Below, piece by piece: positions 9,194 to 60,329 of a DNA stretch of 64,000 bases. Within the stretch, counting starts at the first letter, position 1; each line of letters starts with the position of its first letter. The notes under the pieces are model-generated. The model did not search any database, had not been told where the DNA came from, and worked only from the letters and a program-made list of their open reading frames with translations. Both the position numbers and the translations under genes were made by a program. Source of the DNA: an uncultured Oscillospiraceae bacterium (GTDB lineage Bacteria > Bacillota > Clostridia > Oscillospirales > Oscillospiraceae). Location of the stretch: contig CANQQO010000001.1 of assembly GCA_947625965.1 (NCBI GenBank), forward strand, positions 60,596-124,595, given 5' to 3'.

Positions 9194-10204
9194 TCAGTCC
9201 TGGGCCAGGAATTTTTCCCCGCATTTGGGGCAGGTGATCTTGATTCGCCCCTTTCCTTTAGGCACCCGGAGGGCGGCCCGGCACCTGGGACAGGTAAAGA
9301 AATTGTAGTTGGGGTCCGGGGGCGGGGCGTCGTTTTTCGGGGGTTTGGGGGCCTTCGGCCCCTTGGAAGCGCCCTGGAATTGGGGCAGCCGGAACAGGGG
9401 ACGGTTGGGGAACCGGCCCATGACCATCTCCTGCCAGATAAAGGTGTAGAGGAAAAAGAGATCCAGCGGCAGCAGGACCAGCAGAAGGGCGTGCCACGCC
9501 CCCACCAGGGAAATGGTGACGAGATTGGCGATCAGCGGGATCATCGTCCCCGCCAGGGCCCAGGACCGGGCGTTGGCCTTGGCGGCGTCCACCTCCTGGG
9601 GGGCGGGGATGCCCTGGTCGGTGTATTTCCGGTACTTGGGCTTGACATAGAGGACCAGGAGCAGGCACACGAAGCACAGGGTCACAGGCGCGGCCTGCAA
9701 AAGCAGAATGGCCACGGCAAGCAGCAGGATCACCGCCGCGATGAGCAGGTATTTCCCAAACCAGCCGCCGCCGGAATGGCCGCTCCCCCCGGCGAAGGGG
9801 TTGGTCCGGGGCTTTTCGGGTTTTTCCTCCCTGGGGGCGGCTTTGGTATCCTTCAGGAGCAGCAGAAGGGCCGCTCCGCCGGCGTGATGGAGGGGACAGC
9901 CCTGGTCCACATGGCCCACGCAGCGGCCCGTTTCCAGCCTGGGATGGCTGTAGATCCGGCCGTTGGCCCCCACGTGGCCCACGCAGCGCTCCGTCTCGCC
10001 GTCAGGGTGGGAATAGATCTTGCCGTCGCCGCCCACGCGGCCCACGCAGCGCTCCGCCTGGGAATAGATCCTGCCGTCGCCGCCCACATGGCCGGCGCGG
10101 TAACCCGCCTCCGCATCGGGGTGGGAGTAGATGCTCCCGTCCGGGCCGGTGTGGCCAACACAGTGACCGGCTTCGGACTTGGGATGGTCGTAGACCCGGC
10201 TCAT
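9194..10204 (-). CDS. membrane protein with N-terminal tandem Cys/His repeats and C-terminal zinc ribbon
   Basis: ATG at 10204 overlaps the patatin stop (ATGA). About five repeats of IYSHPxxExxxCVGHVGxxG, then multiple hydrophobic helices, then C-terminal CPRC...CPKC. Confidence 0.7.
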   Translation of the reverse strand: MSRVYDHPKSEAGHCVGHTGPDGSIYSHPDAEAGYRAGHVGGDGRIYSQAERCVGRVGGDGKIYSHPDGETERCVGHVGANGRIYSHPRLETGRCVGHVDQGCPLHHAGGAALLLLLKDTKAAPREEKPEKPRTNPFAGGSGHSGGGWFGKYLLIAAVILLLAVAILLLQAAPVTLCFVCLLLVLYVKPKYRKYTDQGIPAPQEVDAAKANARSWALAGTMIPLIANLVTISLVGAWHALLLVLLPLDLFFLYTFIWQEMVMGRFPNRPLFRLPQFQGASKGPKAPKPPKNDAPPPDPNYNFFTCPRCRAALRVPKGKGRIKITCPKCGEKFLAQD

Positions 10205-11055
10205 TCGCACGCCTCCTTTAAGTAGGTTTCCAGTTCGCCGAAGCGCTCCAGGGCGGTACGCCGGCCGATCTGGTAGACCCGTTCCAGCTCCCGGGGGTCC
10301 TTCTCCATGCTGCCGATCCTCAGGGCCTCCGGCGGGCGGAGGACGAAGACCTCTCCCCGGCGCTCCTTCTCCCGGATGGCGGCGGTGGCATGGTTGTAGC
10401 GGTCGTGGCGGTCCGCCATGGCCTCGATCATTTTGGGGTATTTCCGCAGAAGCACCCGGGCAACGGGGAGGAGTTCGTTGGGCTTTTTTACATAGTCCTC
10501 CGGCTGGGTCAGGACCACCACGTTCCCGGTGTACCCCAGGCTTTCAAAGTAGGACAGGGGAATGGAGTCGCTGATGCCTCCGTCCAAGAGCTTTTTCTCC
10601 CCGATCTCCACCACCCGGGACACCATGGGCATAGAGGCGGAGGCCCGCATCCAGAGGATATCCTCGTCGCCGCCGGTGTCGCAGCGGTGATACACGGGCC
10701 GGCCGGTCTCCACGTCGGTGCAGGTGACGTAGAAGGCCATGGGATCGGCCCGGAACGCGTCCGTATCGAAGAGATCCAGCTCCCTGGGCACGGTCCGGTA
10801 GCAGAATTCCACGTTGTACAGGTCCCCGGTGGTCAGCAGGGAGTGGAAGCCGCAGTACCGCCGGTCGCGGCAGAAGCGCTTGTTATAGCGCAGGGCCCGG
10901 CCGGGCTGATGGGATTTATAGTTGCATCCGAACACCGCCCCGGCGGAAACGCCGATGAGGCCGTCGAACACGACGCCTCGTTCCATAAAGACATCCAGGA
11001 CGCCGCAGGTGAACATTCCCCGCATAGCGCCCCCTTCCAGGATCAATCCCCGCAT
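10201..11055 (-). CDS. patatin-like phospholipase
   Basis: GGAMRG oxyanion motif, GVSAGA nucleophile elbow (GxSxG), and a DGG Asp motif further on. Confidence 0.9.
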   Translation of the reverse strand: MRGLILEGGAMRGMFTCGVLDVFMERGVVFDGLIGVSAGAVFGCNYKSHQPGRALRYNKRFCRDRRYCGFHSLLTTGDLYNVEFCYRTVPRELDLFDTDAFRADPMAFYVTCTDVETGRPVYHRCDTGGDEDILWMRASASMPMVSRVVEIGEKKLLDGGISDSIPLSYFESLGYTGNVVVLTQPEDYVKKPNELLPVARVLLRKYPKMIEAMADRHDRYNHATAAIREKERRGEVFVLRPPEALRIGSMEKDPRELERVYQIGRRTALERFGELETYLKEACE

Positions 11056-12425: not shown

Positions 12426-12550
12426 CCGGCAAGAAAAACGCTCCGGGACCCCAAAGGGTTCCCGGAGACGCTTTTTTGGGGCCGAGCGGCCACGTTCGGC
12501 TTTTGCGGAGAAAAACGGAAACCGGCATGGCGGAGACCGCCATGCCGGTT

Positions 12551-12751
12551 GCAGCTTGTCGAATCGCCTTTCCGAGTTTGCCGTCCGCAGACGGCAAACC
12601 CAATTCAATCATTTTTTGCCAGGGCGTGTACCTGGTAAAAAATACCTCTCAGGCTGAGAGTGTGCGAGCCGGGGGCCTTGCCCCGGCGAGTGCGCGGTTC
12701 AGCCTGCGATCCCCTCCAAATGGGAGCCCAGCAAAGCGGGTCCCATTTGGG
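12551..12751 (+). repeat. multi-hairpin intergenic repeat, copy A (forward orientation, lacks the last hairpin module)
   Basis: Contains TTTGCCGTCcgcaGACGGCAAA, GCCAGGgcgtgtaCCTGGT, the GCCGGGGGCcttGCCCCGGC stem and CCAAATGGGA...TCCCATTTGG. Flanked by identical 30-bp hairpins at 12521-12550 and 12754-12783. Confidence 0.85.
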
Positions 12752-12788
12752 GCACCGGCATGGCGGAGACCGCCATGCCGGTTGGTTT

Positions 12789-15197
12789 TCATTGTCTTAC
12801 ATAGTCCATGCAGATCCAGCCGTTGGATACGCGGCCCCACTGGACGCCGGATACCTCCGTGGTCTCCAGGACCACGACCTTGCTGCCGTAGTACAGATAG
12901 CCCACGATCTCGTTGCCTACGCCGGGGGCCTTCCGAACGTGGAGGGCGTCGGCGATCACCGTGCCGGTGATGGTCGCGGGGGCGGAAGGCTCAGTGGACC
13001 CCGTGCCGCCGCCGGACTCGCCGGTGGACCCGCCGTCAGTCCCGCCGCCGGAGCCGCCGCTCGCGGCGTCTAGCTGGATGTAGTCCATGCTGACCCAGCC
13101 CTTCTCCATCTTGCCCCAGAGGGTGCCGCCGGAGGACTTCGTCTCCGTGATGGTGACCTTGGTGTTGGGATTCAGATAGGCCACAATGGAATAGCTGGTG
13201 CCGGGGCCGCTGCGGACATTGAGATAGTCGCTGACCTTCACGGTGCCCGTCTGGGTCTTGGCCGGGTCCTCAGGGGCGGAGGCCGCGTCCAGCTTGACAT
13301 AGTCCAGGCTGATCCAGCCCTTGTCGATCTTGCCCCAGACCATGCTGCCAACGGTGGTCTGCTCCGTAATGGTGACCTTGGTCCCGTCGGTCAGGTAGCC
13401 CAGGATGGAATAGCTGGTGCCGGGACCGCTGCGAATCCGCAGGCTCCCCGCGTTCACCACAGTGCCGGTGACGGAGGCGCCGCCCTGGCTGCCCGTGTTG
13501 GTCCCGCCGCCGGAGGCCGCGTCCAGCTTGACATAGTCCAGGCTGATCCAGCCCTTATCGATCTTGCCCCAGACCATGCTGCCCGTGGTCTGCTGGGCCA
13601 GGATCTCCACCCGGTCCCCCGTGTTCAGGTAGCCCAGAACGGAATAGCCCGTGCTGGGGCCGCTGCGGATCCGCAGATCGTCGGTGATGACCGTGCCCAT
13701 GACCGTCTTGGGCTTCTCCGGCTCCGCGGGCTTGGTGGGCTCCGTCGGGTCCGTGACCGGGGGATCGGTGGGCTTGGTCGGTTCCTCGGGTTTCGTCTCT
13801 TCGGGTTTGGTTTCCTCCGGTTTTGTCTCTTCCGGCTTCGTCTCCTCGGGCTTGGTTTCCTCAGGCTTCGTCTCCTCGGGGACCGGCTCCTGAGAGGGCA
13901 GGGGACCGTCCAGCTTGACATAGTCCAGGCAGACCCAGCCGCTGCTGATCTTGCCCCAGAGGGCGCCGCCGGCGGACTGATGGTCCGTCACCTCCACCCG
14001 GTCCTGATAGGCCAGGTAGCCCACTACGGCGTTGCCCGTGCCCGGGCCGGAGCGGATGCAAAGACCGCTGGGCGCCGTCACCGTGCCCGTGACGCTCTTG
14101 GCGGGGGCGGGAGGGGTGGTCTCGCCGCCGCTGGGAGCGCCGTTGTAGACCTCGTCAAAATTGGTATAGGACAGGGCGATCCAGCCGTCGCTGAACTTGC
14201 CCCACTGGTAGCCGTCGGCCCGGTGGACGGCGGTGATGGTCAGCTTTTGGCCGTCATAGCCCTTGCCCACGATGCCGTAGTCCAGGCCGGGGCCCTCCCG
14301 CAGATTCACCCAATCGGCCTCGACGAGGACCTCCACCGGCGTTATAGCGGTGCCCTGGGGGACCGTTTCGCTGGTGTCGATGGCCCGGCCGTCCTGGGAC
14401 CAGTGGGCGTAGAGGGTGGCTTCCCGCTGGTTCTCGCCCAGCTCGGTGATCTTGGTGCCGCCGATGCGGGAGGAGTACCAGCCCTCAAACTGATATTCGA
14501 TGGTCACGCCGTTTTCGCTGACGATGTATGTAGCCTCGGCCATGGGCTCGGCCCCGGTGCCGGGCTCATAGCCCTGAACAGGGGCGTTGGAGGTGCCGCC
14601 GCAGGCGTTGTAGAACACGTAGCTGTACTGCTGGGGGGCGACATTGGAGTAGACCCCGTTGAGGTACATATTGGCCTCCTTCAGCCGCCGCTCTACCAGG
14701 CCCCGGTTGGGCAGGCCGCCGGCGTTGCACCACTGGGTGATCCAGTACAGGAAGGTGTTCCCCGTGGCTCCGCTGCGGACGGCGTCCCGGAAATTGCCCA
14801 CGCCGTTCAGATTGGTCCAGCCGTAGCCGCAGTTGTAGGTGAACAGCAGCAGGGCGTCGAACTGATTCTGGCTCAGGGAAAGGCCGCAGGCGTTGATAAA
14901 TTCGTTGAGACTCTCTTCAAAATCGGCCACATAGGTCCGCAGGAGCCAGTCCGCCTCCGCCTCGGTGATGCCGGTCTCCGCCAGGCGCTCGGCCTCGTCC
15001 TCGGGGACCCGGGAGCCGTAGCCCACGGACCACTGGGAGTAGTCCAGGTAGGGGTACTGGCAGAAGCCCTCCATCTCCTTGAGCAGGGCAATGCACTCCT
15101 CGCTGGTAGTCATATTGGATTCGGCCTTGGCCCGAGCGGGCGCCAGCCCCAAAAGCAGCACCATTGACAGCACGATGCACAGGATTCTTCGTTTCAT
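12789..15197 (-). CDS. secreted cell-wall hydrolase: GH24-type lysozyme, Listeria-Bacteroides-type repeat, multiple SH3b domains
   Basis: Signal peptide MKRRILCIVLSMVLLLGLAPARA. Phage-lysozyme-like EGFCQYPYLDYSQWSVGYG...FDALLLFTYNCG. Six copies of LNVRSGPG...WGK..GW..DYV (SH3b). Confidence 0.9.
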   Translation of the reverse strand: MKRRILCIVLSMVLLLGLAPARAKAESNMTTSEECIALLKEMEGFCQYPYLDYSQWSVGYGSRVPEDEAERLAETGITEAEADWLLRTYVADFEESLNEFINACGLSLSQNQFDALLLFTYNCGYGWTNLNGVGNFRDAVRSGATGNTFLYWITQWCNAGGLPNRGLVERRLKEANMYLNGVYSNVAPQQYSYVFYNACGGTSNAPVQGYEPGTGAEPMAEATYIVSENGVTIEYQFEGWYSSRIGGTKITELGENQREATLYAHWSQDGRAIDTSETVPQGTAITPVEVLVEADWVNLREGPGLDYGIVGKGYDGQKLTITAVHRADGYQWGKFSDGWIALSYTNFDEVYNGAPSGGETTPPAPAKSVTGTVTAPSGLCIRSGPGTGNAVVGYLAYQDRVEVTDHQSAGGALWGKISSGWVCLDYVKLDGPLPSQEPVPEETKPEETKPEETKPEETKPEETKPEETKPEEPTKPTDPPVTDPTEPTKPAEPEKPKTVMGTVITDDLRIRSGPSTGYSVLGYLNTGDRVEILAQQTTGSMVWGKIDKGWISLDYVKLDAASGGGTNTGSQGGASVTGTVVNAGSLRIRSGPGTSYSILGYLTDGTKVTITEQTTVGSMVWGKIDKGWISLDYVKLDAASAPEDPAKTQTGTVKVSDYLNVRSGPGTSYSIVAYLNPNTKVTITETKSSGGTLWGKMEKGWVSMDYIQLDAASGGSGGGTDGGSTGESGGGTGSTEPSAPATITGTVIADALHVRKAPGVGNEIVGYLYYGSKVVVLETTEVSGVQWGRVSNGWICMDYVRQ
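13782..13880 (-). repeat. 15-bp in-frame tandem repeat encoding (PEETK)x6 linker
   Basis: Protein reads PEETKPEETKPEETKPEETKPEETKPEETKPEE. Degenerate 15-nt units are visible in the DNA. Confidence 0.85.
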
Positions 15198-27759: not shown

Positions 27760-27936
27760 AAGCTGGTGACATTCGTAGCGCGTGATCGACGCCTCCTTTC
27801 TCAGTAACCCTAAGCTAATTCTATCACAGAGGCGGCTTTTTTTCCACTGGAAAAAAATATTTCTGCGTTTTGCACAAAAAGAAAAGCTATTTTTTATGCA
27901 AAACAGGCATTGCCGGAAGACAGCGGCAATGCCTAT

Positions 27937-28174
27937 TACAGTTTTTCAAACAGCCTTTCCGGGTTTGCCGTCCGCAGACGGCAAACCCATTTCGATCCTT
28001 TTTTGCCAGGGCGTGTACCTGGCAAAAAATACCTTACAGGCGGCAGTAGTGCGAGCTGTGCGCCGGAGGCGCACAGCGAGTGCGCGGGTCAGCCTGCGAT
28101 CCCCTCCAAATGGGAGCCCAGCGAAGCGGGTCCCATTTGGGAGGTTGTCAAAAACCTTCGTTTTTGACAACCTC
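27937..28174 (+). repeat. multi-hairpin intergenic repeat, copy B (forward orientation)
   Basis: Same module order as copy A plus the terminal GTCAAAAACcttcGTTTTTGAC hairpin. The variable stem here is CTGTGCGCCggaGGCGCACAG. Flanked by related hairpins at 27906-27933 and 28179-28209. Confidence 0.85.
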
Positions 28175-28219
28175 AAACGGGCATTGCCGGAAAAACTGCG
28201 GCAATGCCCGTTTGGCGCG

Positions 28220-41258: not shown

Positions 41259-41549
41259 ATGGAAAGACATCTATTTGGCTATCGGGTGGGTCTGGACCCC
41301 GAGGCAACAAGAGCCTGGTATCGAATCGGGGACCGCTGGGACTGCGGCTGCGGCCACTGTCGGAATTTTCTGGCCCTGGCCAGGCACCGCCAACTGCCGG
41401 GGGAGGTCCTGGAAGAACCGGACAAATGTAGAAACGGCATGGCGACCCGCCATGCCGTTCCCGAGGCTGTCAAAAACAAAGGTTTTTGGCAGCCTCCCAA
41501 ATGGGACCCCCTTCGCTGGGTTCCCATTTGGAGGGGAATCCCAGGCTGA
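41259..41549 (+). pseudogene. small Cys-rich ORF whose 3' third is supplied by repeat copy C (possibly a disrupted gene)
   Basis: MERHLFGYRVGLDPEATRAWYRIGDRWDCGCGHCRNF... reads through a hairpin (41433-41459) into the repeat. No clear RBS. Confidence 0.3.
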
Positions 41550-41667
41550 CCCGCGCACGCGTTCAGACCAGAAATATTTTCCGCCACGTACACGCCGCAG
41601 CGGAAAATGATTGAATCTCTTTGCAGCCTGCTTATCGGCAAACGCGGAAAGGCGATTTGATAAGCTG
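41463..41667 (-). repeat. multi-hairpin intergenic repeat, copy C (reverse orientation, most diverged)
   Basis: Retains GTCAAAAAC-type and CCAAATGGGA/TCCCATTTGG hairpins and the GATTGAAT spacer. The first hairpin is degraded. Flanking hairpins (41433-41459 and 41668-41690) differ from each other. Confidence 0.75.
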
Positions 41668-41701
41668 CCCCCGCCGGGTCCCGGCGGGGGTGAGCGTTTT
41701 G

Positions 41702-41830
41702 TTACCGGCTGTTCCGGCTCTGGCTGCTCTGGTTCTGGCTGTTCTGGTTCTGATTCTGGCTGTTCTGATTCTGGTTCTGGTTCTGGTTGCTGTTCTTGTT
41801 CTGGTTCTGATTCTGATTCTGGTTATTCAT
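41702..41830 (-). CDS. Asn/Gln-repeat small protein (42 aa) downstream of spoVAE
   Basis: GGAGGA sits 9 nt before the ATG. MNNQNQNQNQNKNSNQNQNQNQNSQNQNQNSQNQSSQSRNSR*. Same strand as the spoVA genes, 63 nt after spoVAE. Confidence 0.5.
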   Translation of the reverse strand: MNNQNQNQNQNKNSNQNQNQNQNSQNQNQNSQNQSSQSRNSR

Positions 41831-41893
41831 TGTGATGGTCCTCCAAAAGTTGGTTTTTACGGCTGAGCCGCTATCCGAAGTTTGCCCCAAAAC

Positions 41894-43421: not shown

Positions 43422-44003
43422 CTATGAAAGTGCCTCCGCGATGACTTGGAGCCCGATCTCCAGGCCCCGGCAAATTTGCGGGAAGGGCACGGCGGTTTCC
43501 CTGGGTACATGGAGAAAGCCGCCCAGTCGGGGCCGGCCCCCCGCCGCTATGGCGGACAGGAGCCCGTACATCACCCGGTTGCAGACGAAGGTCCCGGCGG
43601 AGCCGCTGACCCGCGCCGGGATCCCGGCGGCGGACATGGCCTCCGCCATTTTTTCTACAGGCAGATCGGAGAACAGGCTCTCCGGCCCGCCGGGCAGGAT
43701 GGGCTGGCCGTCGCGAAAGACGCCGGCGTTGTCGGCAATTTTTGACGCCATACGGTTCACCGCCCTCCGCTCCGGGGTCAGGCAGTCCCGGTTCGCCGCC
43801 AGTCCGACGCAGAGGACGGCGTCGGGGTCCTCCGCCTCCATCAGAGACAGAAGGACCGGCATGACTCCGTCGTACTCTACTGGCAGGCGGGCGGTGACGA
43901 TCTCCGCCCCGAAAAGCGCGGCGGGAAGCGCCCGCACCGCCTCCCAGGAGACGTTTCTCGTTTCCCCGCCGAAGGGCTCGAAGCCCGTTACCAGGAATCG
44001 CAT
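43422..44003 (-). CDS. pcp: pyroglutamyl-peptidase I
   Basis: MRFLVTGFEPFGGETRN... and SAGTFVCN (Cys nucleophile context). Confidence 0.95.
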   Translation of the reverse strand: MRFLVTGFEPFGGETRNVSWEAVRALPAALFGAEIVTARLPVEYDGVMPVLLSLMEAEDPDAVLCVGLAANRDCLTPERRAVNRMASKIADNAGVFRDGQPILPGGPESLFSDLPVEKMAEAMSAAGIPARVSGSAGTFVCNRVMYGLLSAIAAGGRPRLGGFLHVPRETAVPFPQICRGLEIGLQVIAEALS

Positions 44004-44049
44004 TTTTCTCCTTTCTACAACGGGATCCCCGCCTCCGGCGGGGGATCGT

Positions 44050-44283
44050 CAGCTTGTCAAATAACCTTTCGGAGTTTGCCGTCCGCAGACGGCAAACCCA
44101 ATTCAATCATTTTTTGCCAGGGCGTGTACCTGGCAAAAAATACCTTACAGGCTGAGAGTGTGCGAGCCGGGGGCCTTGCCCCCGGCGAGTGCGCGGTTCA
44201 GCCTGCAATCCCCTCCAAATGGAAGCCCAGCGAAGCGGGTTCCATTTGGGAGGCTTTCAAAAACCTTCGTTTTTGACAGCCTC
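44050..44283 (+). repeat. multi-hairpin intergenic repeat, copy D (forward orientation, complete)
   Basis: Differs from copy A at only a handful of positions over the shared core. Includes the terminal hairpin. Flanked by related hairpins at 44024-44047 and 44286-44308. Confidence 0.85.
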
Positions 44284-44311
44284 AAGATCCCCCGCCGGAG
44301 GGGGGATCGGA

Positions 44312-45328
44312 TCAGCGTTTGAGCTCCGGCACCATTTTCTGGTAGTAGGGGAGCAGACCGATCTTGTCCGGGGTGTGCTCGGGAAGCTGCCAGAAATCGT
44401 AGCCGGGATAGTCGTTGCCCTCGATGATGGCGGGACCGGTGGGAGTGATGCAGACATCCCAGCCGATGTAGCGGAATTCGGGGATCTCCATGGCAGCCTT
44501 GCGGCACAGCTCAATGGCCTCCTTCACGAAGGGCACCTGATAGCCCAGCAGGGGCACCCCGGTGTAGGGATGGGTGTCGTAGTTGATGAGCTTGGAGGTG
44601 TGGGCCACGCCCACGATCTTCCCGGTCTCCGGGTCCAGGGGACAGCAGAGGCCGTCGTTTTCCATATTGTCCACGAATTTGCCGCAATTGCCCATCTTCA
44701 CCACCTGATAGACACAGTGGGCCTCCCCCTGGGCCACCAGGGTCACGATCCTGAGGGAGTTGATGGACAGGGGATAGAGCCTGGACAGGGCCTCATGCTG
44801 CTTCAGCTCCTCCTCCACCGTGCCGAAGCCCTTTTCCTTCACGTAGGCGTACATGGCGTGCAGGTCGGGAAAATCGGCGGTTTTCAGTTTTTCAATGCCC
44901 TTGCCGCTCTCGCCCACTTGGGGCTTGGCGAAGAGAACGGGAAAACGCTGGGCAAAGGCTATAAATTCCGCCTCGGCGGCGGTGGTCATGTCCAGGTACT
45001 CCCGGCCCAGGTAGGAGGCGAACCGGGCGTAAAACTCGTTTTTCCGGTCAAAGATATGGGTGTACCTGGGATCGTTGCAGATGGTCACCAGCTTTTTGTT
45101 CCACAGACGGGTGACATAGGTCTTCCTCTGGGCGGCATTCATATCATAGAAGGCGAAGATCAGGTAGTCATAGTACCCGGCTCCGTAGCGAATGGCGCAG
45201 TTGAGGATGTCAAAGAACAGGAAGATCCTGCTTTTCCCGCTCTTTTCGTGGGCCCGGCGAATCACGTCAAAGAATTTGGACAGCCGGACGCCCTTGAGGA
45301 TGTGCAGATAATAGCGCAGCTTCTCCAT
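44312..45328 (-). CDS. sugar-transfer-associated ATP-grasp family protein
   Basis: N-terminal FFDILNCAIRYGAGYYDYLIFAFYDM and overall layout resemble the ATP-grasp_ST family. Assignment is by eye. Confidence 0.75.
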   Translation of the reverse strand: MEKLRYYLHILKGVRLSKFFDVIRRAHEKSGKSRIFLFFDILNCAIRYGAGYYDYLIFAFYDMNAAQRKTYVTRLWNKKLVTICNDPRYTHIFDRKNEFYARFASYLGREYLDMTTAAEAEFIAFAQRFPVLFAKPQVGESGKGIEKLKTADFPDLHAMYAYVKEKGFGTVEEELKQHEALSRLYPLSINSLRIVTLVAQGEAHCVYQVVKMGNCGKFVDNMENDGLCCPLDPETGKIVGVAHTSKLINYDTHPYTGVPLLGYQVPFVKEAIELCRKAAMEIPEFRYIGWDVCITPTGPAIIEGNDYPGYDFWQLPEHTPDKIGLLPYYQKMVPELKR

Positions 45329-55626: not shown

Positions 55627-55666
55627 AAACGACTTTAGGTGGCAGACACGAAAGTGCCTGCCACCT

Positions 55667-55897
55667 GAGACTGTCAAAACTTTCGTTTTTGACAGTCTCC
55701 CAAATGGGACCCGCTTCGCTGGGCTCCCATTTGGAGGGGATTGCAGGCTGACCCGCGCACTCGCCGGTCTTTCGCCCGGCTCGTACTACTGCCGCCTGTA
55801 AGGTATTTTTTACCAGGTACACGCCCTGGCAAAAAAGGATCGAAATGGGTTTACCGTCTGCGGACGGCAAACGCGAAAAGGCGATTCGACAAACTGG
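55667..55897 (-). repeat. multi-hairpin intergenic repeat, copy E (reverse orientation, complete)
   Basis: All modules are present. The variable stem is GCCGGgcgaaagaCCGGC. Flanking hairpins 55637-55666 and 55898-55925 differ from each other. Confidence 0.85.
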
Positions 55898-55938
55898 ATC
55901 TGCCCCGCCGGGAGGCGGGGCAGATTTTTGGGATACTA

Positions 55939-58431
55939 TTATAAATAACGTCCCGTGACGCTTTCCTTTACGGTCTTGAGCTGCTCCGGCGTGCCGGAGG
56001 CCACGATGCGGCCGCCGTCTTTGCCGCCGCCGGGACCCAGGTCCACCACATAGTCCGCGCTGCGGATCACGTCCAGATCGTGTTCAATGACGATCACCGT
56101 GGCGCCGCTGTCAATCAGGGTTTGGAAGACGCCCATTAGGGAGCGGACGTCCAGGGGGTGGAGGCCGATGGTGGGCTCGTCGAAGACGAAGAGAGCGTCG
56201 CTCTGCCCCCGTCCCAGCTCGCTGGCCAGCTTGAGCCGCTGGGCCTCGCCGCCGGACAGACCGGGGGTCTGCTCTCCCAGGGTCAGGTAGCCCAGGCCCA
56301 CCTCATGAAGCACCGAAAGGCGGCTCCAAACGGTTTTCAAGTCAAAGCAGGCCGCCATGGCCTCGTCCACGCTGAGCGCCATCAGCTCTGGCAGGGAGAG
56401 CTCCCCTGTGGGGCCCTTGCGCTGGATCTGAAAGGCTTCCCGGCTGTAGCGGGAGCCGCCGCAGTCGGGGCAGGGGATGTCCACGTCCGGTAGGAACTGA
56501 ACGTCCAGGCTGATGCTGCCGGTGCCGTCGCAGGTGGGGCAGCGGAGGAGACCGGTGTTGTAGGAGAAGTCCCCGGCCTTGCGGCCATGGGCCCGGGCCT
56601 GGGGCGTTCTGGCGTAGACCTTCCGCAGCTCGTCGTGGACATCGGCGTAGGTGGCCACGGTGGAACGGATGTTGATGCCGATGGGCGTGGCGTCGATGAG
56701 CTTGACCTGGCGGATGCCGGGGGCGTCCAGAGAGCGGACGTGGCCGGGGAGGGGAGCTCCCGCCGCCTGGGCGGCCAGGGCCGGGACCAGGCTTTCCAGG
56801 ACCAGAGTGGTCTTGCCGGAGCCGGAGACCCCGGTGACCACGGACAGCCGCCCCTTGGGGAAGGAGACGGTCAAGGGCTGGACGGTGTGGATGGGCCCTG
56901 AGGAGAGGGTCACGGTTCCCAAGTCAAAGAGCCGGTCCGCCGGAGTCCGGGGCCGCAGCGGAGGCTGGGGCAGGGGAGAGAGGTAGGGCCCGATCCGGGA
57001 GGCGGGGTTCCCCGCCAGGTCCTCCACAGTGCCCTGAGCGATGACCCGGCCTCCCGCCGCCCCGGCGTCGGGGCCCAGCTCGATGAGCCAGTCCGCGTGG
57101 GACAATACGGCGGTGTCGTGGTCTACCAGCAGCACGGAGTTTCCGTCGGCCACCAGGTCGTCCATTACCCCGGTGAGGCCCTCCAGATTGGCGGGGTGGA
57201 GGCCGATGGAGGGCTCGTCCAGGACGTAGAGGACTCCCGTGGTCCGGTTCCGCACGGCCCGGGCAAGCTGGGTCCGCTGCCGTTCCCCGGTGGAGAGGGT
57301 GGCGGCGGCCCGGTCCAGGGTCAGGTAGGACAGCCCCAGGTCCACCAGCCGCCGGGCGGTGTTCCGAAAGGCGTCGCAGATGCTGTTCGCCATGGGGCCC
57401 ATTTCCTCGGGGAGAGAGCCCGGGACCCCGGCCACCCATTCCATCAGCTCCGCGAGGGTCATCCGACAGGCGTCGGCCAGGGAGATCCCCCGGAGCCTGG
57501 GCCTCCGGGCGGCCTCGGACAGGCGGGTGCCGCCGCAGTCGGGGCAGGTGTCCTGGCGGAGGAATTTTTCCACCCGCTTCATGCCCTTCTCGTCCTTGAC
57601 CTTGGAGAGGGCGTTTTCCACGGTGTACACCGCGTTAAAATAGGTAAAATCCAGCTCCGCCGCGTCGTTGGAGTTCTTTGGATGGTAAAAGATATGCTTC
57701 TTCACCGCAGGACCGTGGTAGACGATGTCCTTCTCCGCCTCGGTCAGCTCGGAAAAGGGCACGTCGGTCCGGACGCCCATGGCCCGGCAGACGTCGGTCA
57801 TCAGGGACCACATCAGGCTGTTCCAGGGCGCCACCGCCCCCTGGTCGATGGTGAGGGAGGGATCCGGCACCAGCGTGTCCAGGTCCACGGCCCGCACCAC
57901 CCCGGTGCCGCCGCAGGTGGGGCAGGCGCCCTGGCTGTTGAAAGCCAGCTCCTCCGCCCCCGGGGCGTGGACAGCCTCGCCGCAGACCGGACAGAACATG
58001 GGCTTTTCGGCGGCCACGTCCAGGGTGGGGGGCAGGTAGTGCCCGTTGGGGCACCGGTGGCTGGAAAGCCGGGAGAACATGAGCCGCAGACTGTTCAGCA
58101 GCTCCGTGGAGGTGCCGAAGGTGCTGCGGATGCCCGGCACCCCAGGCCGCTGATGCAGCGCCAGGGCGGCGGGAATATAGCGGACCTCGTCCACCTGGGC
58201 TGCCGCCGCCTGGGTCATCCGCCGGCGGGTATAGGTGGAGAGGGACTCCAAATACCGCCGGGACCCCTCGGCATATAGGACCCCCAGGGCCAGGGAGGAT
58301 TTTCCGGAGCCGGAGACCCCGGAAATGCCCACGATTTTGTTCAAGGGAATGTCCACATCGATGTTTTTCAGATTGTGGACCCGCGCGCCCCGGACCTGGA
58401 TGGCCTGGGGAGAATTGTCCGCTCGCTTCAT
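55939..58431 (-). CDS. UvrA-like ABC ATPase paralog (830 aa)
   Basis: Starts [39 protein letters not shown]. Zinc modules (CPVCG, CPTCGG, CPDCGG, CPTCDG). Second [14 protein letters not shown] signatures. Confidence 0.9.
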
Positions 58432-59925: not shown

Positions 59926-59945
59926 CAAGACCGGGGACAGTGGAG

Positions 59946-60122
59946 GCCGTCAAAGGACTTCGTTTTTGACAGCTTCCCAAATGGGACCCGCTTCGCTGGG
60001 CCCCATTTGGAGGGAACCTCAGGCTGAGAGGTGTTTTCTGTCGGGTACGCGCCCTGGCAAATATCAAAATGTATCTGCCGTCTGCGGACGGCAAACGCTG
60101 CGCGGCTTTTTTGTCAAGCTGG
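59946..60122 (-). repeat. multi-hairpin intergenic repeat, copy F (reverse orientation, lacks the variable middle stem)
   Basis: Retains the terminal hairpin, CCAAATGGG/CCCATTTGG and GACGGCAAA/TTTGCCGTC modules. Flanked by a hairpin at 60122-60151 and a partial copy of it at 59929-59951. Confidence 0.8.
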
Positions 60123-60246
60123 ACCGGGGACGGCGGGGGCCGTCCCCGGTCTTTGCGGAAAACGCACAAATTTGAGGGGAAGAATCAGGGGTATCTATTG
60201 CTTTTTGCCCTTTTTTGTCTACTTTTCAAATCGTTTGTTTTTCCGC

Positions 60247-60275
60247 TTGACAGCCTTGGCGCAAAGTGGTATAAT
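60247..60275 (+). promoter_or_regulatory. consensus sigma-A promoter for pyrC-carAB
   Basis: TTGACA (60247-60252), 17-nt spacer, TGgTATAAT (hexamer 60270-60275). Confidence 0.7.
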
Positions 60276-60329
60276 TGGGCGCAATGAGTACACCCGCCCA
60301 AAACGCGGGGGGAATCAAAGGAGGCTGCT

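Follow-up and report, generated by a model that had tools for sequence, protein, structure and literature searches.

Introduction

[quoted passage not shown] Stem-loops are the targets of a different set of elements: group IIC introns, IS1397/ISKpn1 and IS621/IS1111-type elements target REP or attC stem-loops or terminators, inserting at these structures or just 3' of them (directly 3' in the case of group IIC introns). Here we analyze a non-coding, five-hairpin element of 179-236 bp that is present in six copies in a 64-kb stretch of contig CANQQO010000001.1 (the whole stretch is referred to as the window), part of the genome of an uncultured gut Oscillospiraceae bacterium. The ends of this element abut stem-loops of the host chromosome.

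Duplication of an entire repeat is known from Cas1-Cas2, which joins ends to opposite strands in two reactions, one at each edge of a repeat that is often palindromic; the whole ~28-37-bp unit is thereby duplicated. Casposons yield duplications of 14-15 bp, and insertion sequences of the IS1634 family have unusually long direct repeats of variable length; we know of no tie between repeat length and a stem-loop in this family. REP/RAYT elements have, to our knowledge, neither terminal inverted repeats nor flanking duplications. A review of prokaryotic MITEs from 2024 mentions neither the targeting of terminator hairpins nor the duplication of whole hairpins (PMC10969869). Among the repeats it covers is the pneumococcal SPRITE, a small interspersed repeat resembling a rho-independent terminator (PMC10969869). 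Our literature search on the terminal and core motifs of the present element, and on MITEs or insertion sequences that target terminators, retrieved no relevant paper.

The analysis suggests, with a probability that we put at roughly two-thirds, that the element is a non-autonomous, MITE-like mobile DNA of ~230 bp with five local hairpins, moved in trans by an enzyme encoded elsewhere. It is most likely mobile DNA and not an RNA gene. The element has inserted into intergenic DNA with every end that could be scored 0-2 nt 3' of a stem-loop, read on the strand of that end, and at sister-species loci a single hairpin is found without the element.

Results

Six copies of a five-hairpin element

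The six copies listed in the original prediction were all recovered by alignment, blastn-short, nhmmer and a covariance model (CM), with refined limits. Numbering the hairpins H1 to H5 from the left end of the element, the copies are as follows.

c1, 12552-12753, + strand: H1-H4 present, terminal hairpin H5 missing; nhmmer E = 1.4e-68, CM score 242.8 bits
c2, 27939-28174, + strand: full length, H1-H5; CM score 254.7 bits
c3, 41463-41667, - strand: inner part of H3 absent, H1 and H2 divergent; CM score 174.8 bits
c4, 44050-44283, + strand: the copy on which the original prediction centered; full length, H1-H5; CM score 276.3 bits
c5, 55667-55896, - strand: full length, H1-H5; CM score 238.4 bits
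c6, 59943-60121, - strand: H3 deleted, H2 and H5 degenerate; CM score 142.4 bits

Mean column identity of the six aligned copies was 80% after trimming and 76% with the flanks included. A 40-nt pattern for the long core hairpin matched five times in the window, compared to 0 matches in dinucleotide shuffles. Beyond the six copies, blastn-short, nhmmer with a hidden Markov model (HMM) and the CM detected no further copies, fragments or solo modules in the window.

Both ends of the element abut stem-loops

Eleven of the 12 element ends could be scored. All of them follow a GC-rich stem-loop on its 3' side at a distance of 0-2 nt, read on the strand of the end concerned. This holds for the left end of all six copies, with the distance taken from the 3' foot of the hairpin, and for the right end of the five copies in which it was scorable. 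The adjoining hairpins are listed below.

c1 left flank hairpin, 12521-12551: ACCGGCATGGCGG-AGA-CCGCCATGCCGGTTG, preceded by an A-run; direct repeat with 12754-12784 (31/31)
c1 right flank hairpin, 12754-12784: identical copy, followed by a T-run
c2 left flank hairpin, 27901-27938: partly decayed, keeps the downstream context TTTTGCATAAA
c2 right flank hairpin, 28174-28214: perfect 16-bp stem, directly 3' of the kinase stop codon
c3 hairpin at left end, 41668-41690: terminator of a small QN-rich open reading frame (ORF), orthologous to hairpin 2 in the sister species L011
c3 hairpin at right end, 41433-41459: natively terminates a 56-aa ORF and is not duplicated from the left-end hairpin
c4 left flank hairpin, 44024-44047: GATCCCCGCC-TCC-GGCGGGGGATC; inverted repeat with 44286-44308 (24 nt, one gap)
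c4 right flank hairpin, 44286-44308: reverse complement of the left one
c5 hairpin at left end, 55898-55925: T-run on its outer side
c5 hairpin at right end, 55637-55666: just 3' of the PemK/MazF stop codon, differing in sequence from the other flank
c6 hairpin at left end, 60122-60151: GACCGGGGACGGC-GGGG-GCCGTCCCCGGTC
c6 partial second copy of the left-end hairpin, 59929-59951: overlaps the right end of the element via the microhomology GGCCGTC/GGCTGTC

An A-run and a T-run are located on the outer sides of the flank hairpins in every copy. Four of the six copies (c1, c2, c4 and c6) carry the whole flank hairpin on both sides. At c1, ACCGGCATGGCGGAGACCGCCATGCCGGTTG is present on either side of the element as a perfect direct repeat. 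The duplication at c2 is direct and comprises ~34-40 nt with three mismatches and one gap, the decayed copy being the one away from the kinase gene. The duplication at c6 comprises 32 nt at 78% identity, with the second copy eroded. Apart from repeats within coding sequences, these flank hairpins are the only local duplications of at least 18 nt in the 64 kb. The abutment of stem-loops, together with the duplication of a whole stem-loop, is the most unusual feature of the element and had been missed in the original prediction.

Copies c3 and c5 are inserted between two differing adjacent hairpins, with nothing duplicated. Here the two flank hairpins are native terminators that belong to separate, convergent genes. 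At c3, other strains demonstrate this: in L022 and L023 the 56-aa ORF ends 5 nt ahead of the right hairpin. A single rule, according to which each end is placed immediately beyond the 3' side of a stem-loop in the same strand, would cover all six copies.

Three other explanations of the flank hairpins were considered and rejected. They are not a dispersed REP-like family, as no arm recurs in the window, save for a resemblance between c1 and c3. The right hairpin of c3 was not imported by the element, since it is the native terminator of the complete 56-aa gene in L022 and L023. Finally, insertion into the loop of a hairpin is incompatible with the presence of complete hairpins, with both arms and loop, on either side.

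Empty sites in related species

The closest public relatives of the source organism are uncultured gut metagenome-assembled genomes (MAGs). AddA is 75% identical in the sister species and ~62% identical in other Oscillospiraceae/Faecousia MAGs. Empty sites, as expected for a MITE, were found in related genomes for c3 and c4 (L011) and for c2 (L021 and L013).

At the c4 site, the spacer between pcp and the ATP-grasp gene measures 47 bp in the sister species L011 and contains one hairpin (GGGCCCCCGC-TTTC-GCGGGGGCCC) and no element, compared to 309 bp in the window. At the c2 site of the sister species L021, the kinase stop codon is followed by 8 nt, one hairpin, TTTATTATGCAATTTGCATAAA and a well-conserved promoter region, again with no element; the conserved TTTGCATAAA and then the promoter follow the single hairpin. 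The window reads stop codon, hairpin, element, hairpin, TTTTGCATAAAA and the same promoter. The more distant relative L013 also has a single hairpin and no element at this position. At the c3 site, L011 has two different hairpins 13 nt apart, with no element.

No copies were detected by HMM or CM in ~160 kb from relatives. A pattern scan of species representatives (one genome each for 185,579 species) returned one partial, diverged copy, in a rabbit-gut Oscillospiraceae MAG (L001, 2502-2685, - strand). In this copy H3 and H4 are well conserved and other hairpins replace H2 and H5; it is located directly after the 3' end of a gene. The element family is rare in public data.

Strain comparison

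The possibility of an assembly artefact, raised in the original prediction, was tested by comparison with independent metagenome assemblies, and the same insertions were present (L009, L010, L017, L018, L020 and L022-L025); artefactual origin of the copies is thus rejected. Copies c1, c2, c3 and c4 were present in every sampled strain; a look-up of c5 in other strains gave no match. Copy c3, an old insertion, occupies the same site between the same flanks in strains that share 95-96% identity with the window. The orthologous c3 copies are only 81-86% identical, compared to 95-99.8% for their flanks. One strain lacks the tip of H4; in another, H1 and H2 are of the common type, in contrast to the divergent type of the window. 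This pattern fits gene conversion between copies combined with decay, and not a locus-specific function.

In other samples, contigs terminate within the element, with H3 tips or combinations that are absent from the window, such as GCTGTGCGCCTCCGGCGTACAGC at the c1 site. This argues for more copies elsewhere in that genome, with chimeric assembly at ~3x coverage as another possibility. The suggestion in the original prediction of a very abundant genome-wide family is therefore plausible. Note that the H3 tip differs between the window and other samples at 12670-12700 (c1; L017/L018) and at 28040-28090 (c2; L020). This difference could stem from gene conversion among the copies, from a hairpin that can be swapped or from chimeric assembly at low coverage.

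Structure of the element

The element consists of the following modules, in order from the left end.

Left end of the element: CAGYTTKTCAAA
Hairpin H1: GTTTGCCGTC-CGCA-GACGGCAAAC
Hairpin H2: TTTTTTGCCAGG-GCGTGTA-CCTGGCAAAAAA
Hairpin H3: three-tier stem with a variable GC-rich tip
Hairpin H4: CCAAATGGGAGCCC-AGCGAAGC-GGGTCCCATTTGG, the best-conserved hairpin
Hairpin H5: GAGGCTGTCAAAAAC-CTTC-GTTTTTGACAGCCTC

This order is as predicted, but it is not complete in every copy: c1 is without H5, the inner part of H3 is missing from c3 and c6, and degeneration has gone furthest in c6. The imperfect inverted repeats noted earlier at the two ends are short, matching at 8-9 of 12 positions in c2-c5 and at 6 of 12 in c6. 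The ends read (C/G)AG(C/G)YTGTCAAA, with AG..TGTCAAA as the core; on the right, the repeat arm coincides with an arm of the H5 palindrome. The element has no coding capacity, as indels of 1-3 nt among the copies disrupt any reading frame.

The interior folds into five independent hairpins and not by pairing between the two ends. The c4 region has a predicted folding energy of -180 kcal/mol, compared to -108 ± 5.5 kcal/mol for shuffled sequences (z = -13 for the + strand and -11.7 for the - strand). For the 78 proposed base pairs, 91.8% of the cells across the six copies are paired, and this value drops to 35-47% when the partners are slid by 1-3 columns. Ten pairs have changed on both sides, compared to 3.0 ± 1.4 in shuffles (0 of 500 shuffles reached 10). 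Thus, compensatory change maintains all five hairpins. Single mismatches within helices, read on the forward strand, are G.T in nine cases and A.C in two, with several of these events common by descent, and in five of the six copies the more stable fold is that of the forward strand. This asymmetry is only a hint that the single-stranded forward strand matters. The loop of H4 contains GCGAAGC, known to form an unusually stable DNA mini-hairpin; this would fit a single-stranded DNA intermediate but proves nothing.

In a metagenome scan only the H4 hairpin was matched, as part of a different repeat. This second repeat of ~110 nt occurs in the metagenome contigs L003 (493-600 and 861-970), L005 (4398-4510), L006 (748-860) and L004 (1700-1844). 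It begins with the H4 hairpin, CCAAATGGrAGCCCAGCGAAGCGGGTyCCATTTGG, with the same G-C/A-T covariation, and continues with AGAGGA...GCAGCGAAA, a further hairpin and then GGAGTTTGTGAGGACGA. One setting of this repeat is an rRNA operon, where it is found directly upstream of two tRNA genes; another is the gap between ahcY and the gene that follows. The second repeat had no match in Rfam.

Proposed mode of insertion

We propose that the inserting enzyme would recognize the base of a stem-loop, either as an extruded cruciform or as a folded single strand, and not a sequence. At a single target hairpin the joining points would be at its two feet, on opposite sides, with the hairpin itself as the stagger. 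Gap repair would duplicate the whole hairpin, giving a 'target-site duplication' of 24-40 bp, the length of which would track that of the hairpin. Where two hairpins are neighbours, the element would land between them with loss of the short spacer and with no duplication. After insertion, the copies would decay by palindrome deletion and swap segments by gene conversion. Because the outer A-run and T-run are kept, both neighbouring genes would retain a terminator consisting of a hairpin and a T-run, and insertion would be nearly harmless. This in turn would explain the location of the copies at the 3' ends of genes. More tentatively, the enzyme may be an integrase or transposase that reads DNA shape, not sequence, and joins each end of the element to the base of a cruciform or stem-loop, which would make the duplication equal to the hairpin; such a reaction would apply a Cas1-Cas2-like geometry to chromosomal terminators.

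Stem-loop targeting and whole-hairpin duplication are so far documented by six copies and three cross-species empty sites, and several points weigh against interpreting the element as a MITE-like DNA inserted in this manner. The sample consists of six copies from one window, and the duplication is present in only four of them. The inverted duplicate at c4 is not predicted by a simple scheme of staggered cuts. The terminal repeat is short and may be a binding half-site rather than a classical terminal inverted repeat. The c1 hairpin and the native right hairpin of c3 share the 10-mer CGGCATGGCG in both arms; it has no other exact occurrence in the window, and sharing by chance is unlikely. The empty sites are from a species with only 69-75% protein identity, and their hairpins differ in sequence from those of the window; the state before insertion is documented by cross-species sites and not by the source species itself. 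No presence/absence polymorphism was found among the sampled strains. Finally, no full-length autonomous element sharing the termini was detected in the window or in viral, plasmid and phage searches (no blastn match in the phage and plasmid collections, and none in two pattern scans of viral contigs). The absence of any mobility gene from the 64 kb, as stated in the original prediction, was confirmed for the ~55 ORFs scanned with Pfam: none encodes a transposase, integrase, reverse transcriptase, HUH enzyme, Cas1 or RAYT.

If the rule for the element ends holds genome-wide, it would represent a structure-guided mode of insertion not described for bacterial MITEs, and would imply an enzyme with a possibly useful, shape-based choice of target. 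A shape-reading enzyme would constitute a previously undescribed targeting mode in bacterial transposition, leaving the terminators of both neighbours intact. Under the rule, a parasite could build up to one copy in about every 10 kb of a compact genome and leave terminators unbroken. If the rule fails, the element is one more lineage-specific MITE. The family also breaks metagenome assemblies of the lineage.

Alternative explanations

Of the other explanations, a mosaic of extragenic palindromes similar to REP/BIME survives best, although we consider it unlikely. In such a mosaic, a RAYT-type (HUH Y1) transposase or host proteins would read each hairpin unit as single-stranded DNA, and the whole would spread in a REPIN-like manner. 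The element resembles REP/BIME/REPIN sequences in its extragenic position at gene 3' ends, its mosaic build and its several perfect local hairpins retained by compensatory change. The presence of H4 alone in the different composite repeat that other Oscillospiraceae carry (in an rRNA operon, twice, and following ahcY) is consistent with such mobile units, as are the restriction of high similarity in L001 to H3-H4 and the excess of G.T over A.C mismatches on one strand. However, the feet of H1-H5 have no conserved GTAG-type tetranucleotide, and in the window the units always occur in a fixed-order block of 230 bp and never solo. Moreover, the element has apparent terminal inverted repeats and flanking duplications, and the window contains no RAYT gene. 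A replication-direction bias is also lacking: the copies are oriented + + - + - - along the window while the GC skew stays positive throughout.

A family of structured non-coding RNAs is improbable. The copies would be small RNA genes, or elements in 3' untranslated regions (UTRs) acting in mRNA stability, processing or termination, and would have spread by duplication. The very stable fold and the covariation in all five helices are what such a family would display. The better folding of the forward strand and the same nine-to-two ratio, here of G.U over A.C, point in this direction as well, as does the middle helix of H3, which forms via G.U pairs on the forward strand only. In addition, the outer T-runs would place each copy within the transcribed 3' UTRs of its neighbours. 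In contrast, a search of the whole window against Rfam at gathering score had no matches, and neither did a search of 43990-44340 at E <= 10. The element contains no hairpin followed by a T-run and a single promoter-like match, which is weak and palindromic. It occurs in both orientations between genes of the same direction, c2 and c4 being opposite to c5 with all three between minus-strand genes, and the six copies have no orientation bias relative to the transcription of their neighbours. The element is absent from the same loci in sister species, its copies at orthologous sites change more quickly than the flanking sequence, with loss of hairpins, and the flank duplications indicate insertion. 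Thus, of the two identities offered by the original prediction, MITE-like or structured-RNA-like, the former is supported by the empty sites, the flank duplications, the short terminal inverted repeats, the lack of coding capacity, a lineage-restricted distribution and the decay of copies, and the latter is not supported.

The last alternative is an element derived from a single-strand transposon (of the IS200/IS605-type 'PATE' kind, possibly carrying a TnpB/IscB guide-RNA scaffold) or a retroelement that seeks terminators as group IIC introns do. It would fit the richness in hairpins, the insertion directly 3' of stem-loops and the slight wobble-pair strand asymmetry, but is very improbable given the lack of a conserved tetra- or pentanucleotide before the left end (flanks TTG, TTA, GGG, CGT, ATC and GTC), the apparent terminal inverted repeats and the duplications, both absent in IS200/IS605, the lack of replication-strand bias, the lack of a group II intron or omega-RNA-type match in Rfam, and a length of 230 nt, too short for a group II ribozyme.

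Genomic setting

The window is ordinary chromosome of a spore-forming member of the Oscillospiraceae, with genes for CoaX, HprK, an aro operon, MnmA, AddAB, SpoIIR, SpoVA, PheST, pyrC and carA. After re-annotation of the neighbouring genes, every copy was found to be intergenic and next to the 3' end of a gene (6/6), in agreement with the original prediction. Three copies are located between convergent genes: c1 between a 190-aa ORF and a lysozyme/SH3 gene, c3 between the 56-aa ORF and the QN-rich mini-ORF, and c5 between the PemK/MazF gene and a UvrA-like gene. Copy c2 lies 3' of the kinase gene and ahead of a phospholipase C gene, c4 lies 3' of the ATP-grasp gene and ahead of pcp, and c6 separates the 3' end of a GH4 glycosidase gene from the pyrC promoter. 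A perfect TTGACA-17-TATAAT promoter is present at 60249-60277 (+), upstream of pyrC and just past the c6 flank hairpin.

The small ORF adjacent to c3 (41259-41549, +; MERHLFGYRVGLDPEATRAWYRIGDRWDCGCGHCRNF...) is a member of a family whose N-terminal ~55 aa are conserved, and in related strains it is a complete 56-aa gene. In the window its stop codon has been lost, and the frame reads through the hairpin into c3; the resulting 96-aa product (P0361) in the source annotation contains a spurious extension produced by the element. On the other side of c3, a tiny ORF downstream of spoVAEB (41691-41831, -) encodes an N/Q-rich peptide, MNNQNQNQNQNKNSNQNQNQNQNSQNQ..., from a sequence made of repeats of 6 and 15 nt. 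The ORF is also conserved in the sister species, and its length differs among strains (42 or 44 aa).

The UvrA-like ABC ATPase next to c5 (55939-58431, -; 830 aa) has homologues with 84-85% identity in relatives, located in wholly different gene neighbourhoods, indicating that this paralogue has moved around. Because these loci are not syntenic, they provide no empty site for c5 or c6. The lysozyme gene beside c1 (12789-15197, -) contains six SH3 repeats and a 15-nt repeat tract. Elsewhere in the window, a 338-aa ORF (9194-10210, -) without a Pfam match contains tandem repeats at 9907-10173 with a period of 51-63 nt.

Comparison with known systems

The SPRITE repeat is itself terminator-like, unlike the present element, which is without a hairpin-plus-T-run and adjoins hairpins of the host. 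With group IIC introns, IS1397/ISKpn1 and IS621/IS1111-type elements it shares a target that is a stem-loop and not a plain sequence. However, those elements are autonomous (with a ribozyme and reverse transcriptase, or a DDE/DEDD recombinase), insert at one defined position and do not duplicate a whole hairpin, whereas here each of two ends abuts a hairpin. As to group IIC introns in particular, the element has neither ribozyme domains nor a reverse-transcriptase ORF, and the similarity is confined to target preference.

The likeness to Cas1-Cas2 and casposons is an analogy limited to the geometry of duplication: the window has no cas1, the insert measures 230 bp and has its own ends, and the target hairpins are unrelated to each other. 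The long repeats of variable length of the IS1634 family are likewise analogous, with no such transposase found in the window.

The closest resemblance is to bacterial MITEs such as Correia, RUP, ERIC, Chunjie and QMITEs, which are also small, non-coding, multi-copy and intergenic (PMC10969869). Like these, the element is folded, has truncated variants and lacks a transposase of its own (PMC10969869). Terminal inverted repeats and flanking duplications also belong to the MITE type (PMC10969869); in the element the former are short and may be a repeated half-site, and the latter are atypical and present at four of the six copies. It is also within the size range of MITEs (non-coding, <~500 bp). 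It differs from the usual MITEs in its inverted ends, which match at 8-9 of 12 positions with one of them inside a palindrome, and in having no known parent insertion sequence. It differs further in the nature of its duplication, which is a whole stem-loop of 24-40 bp that varies with the hairpin.

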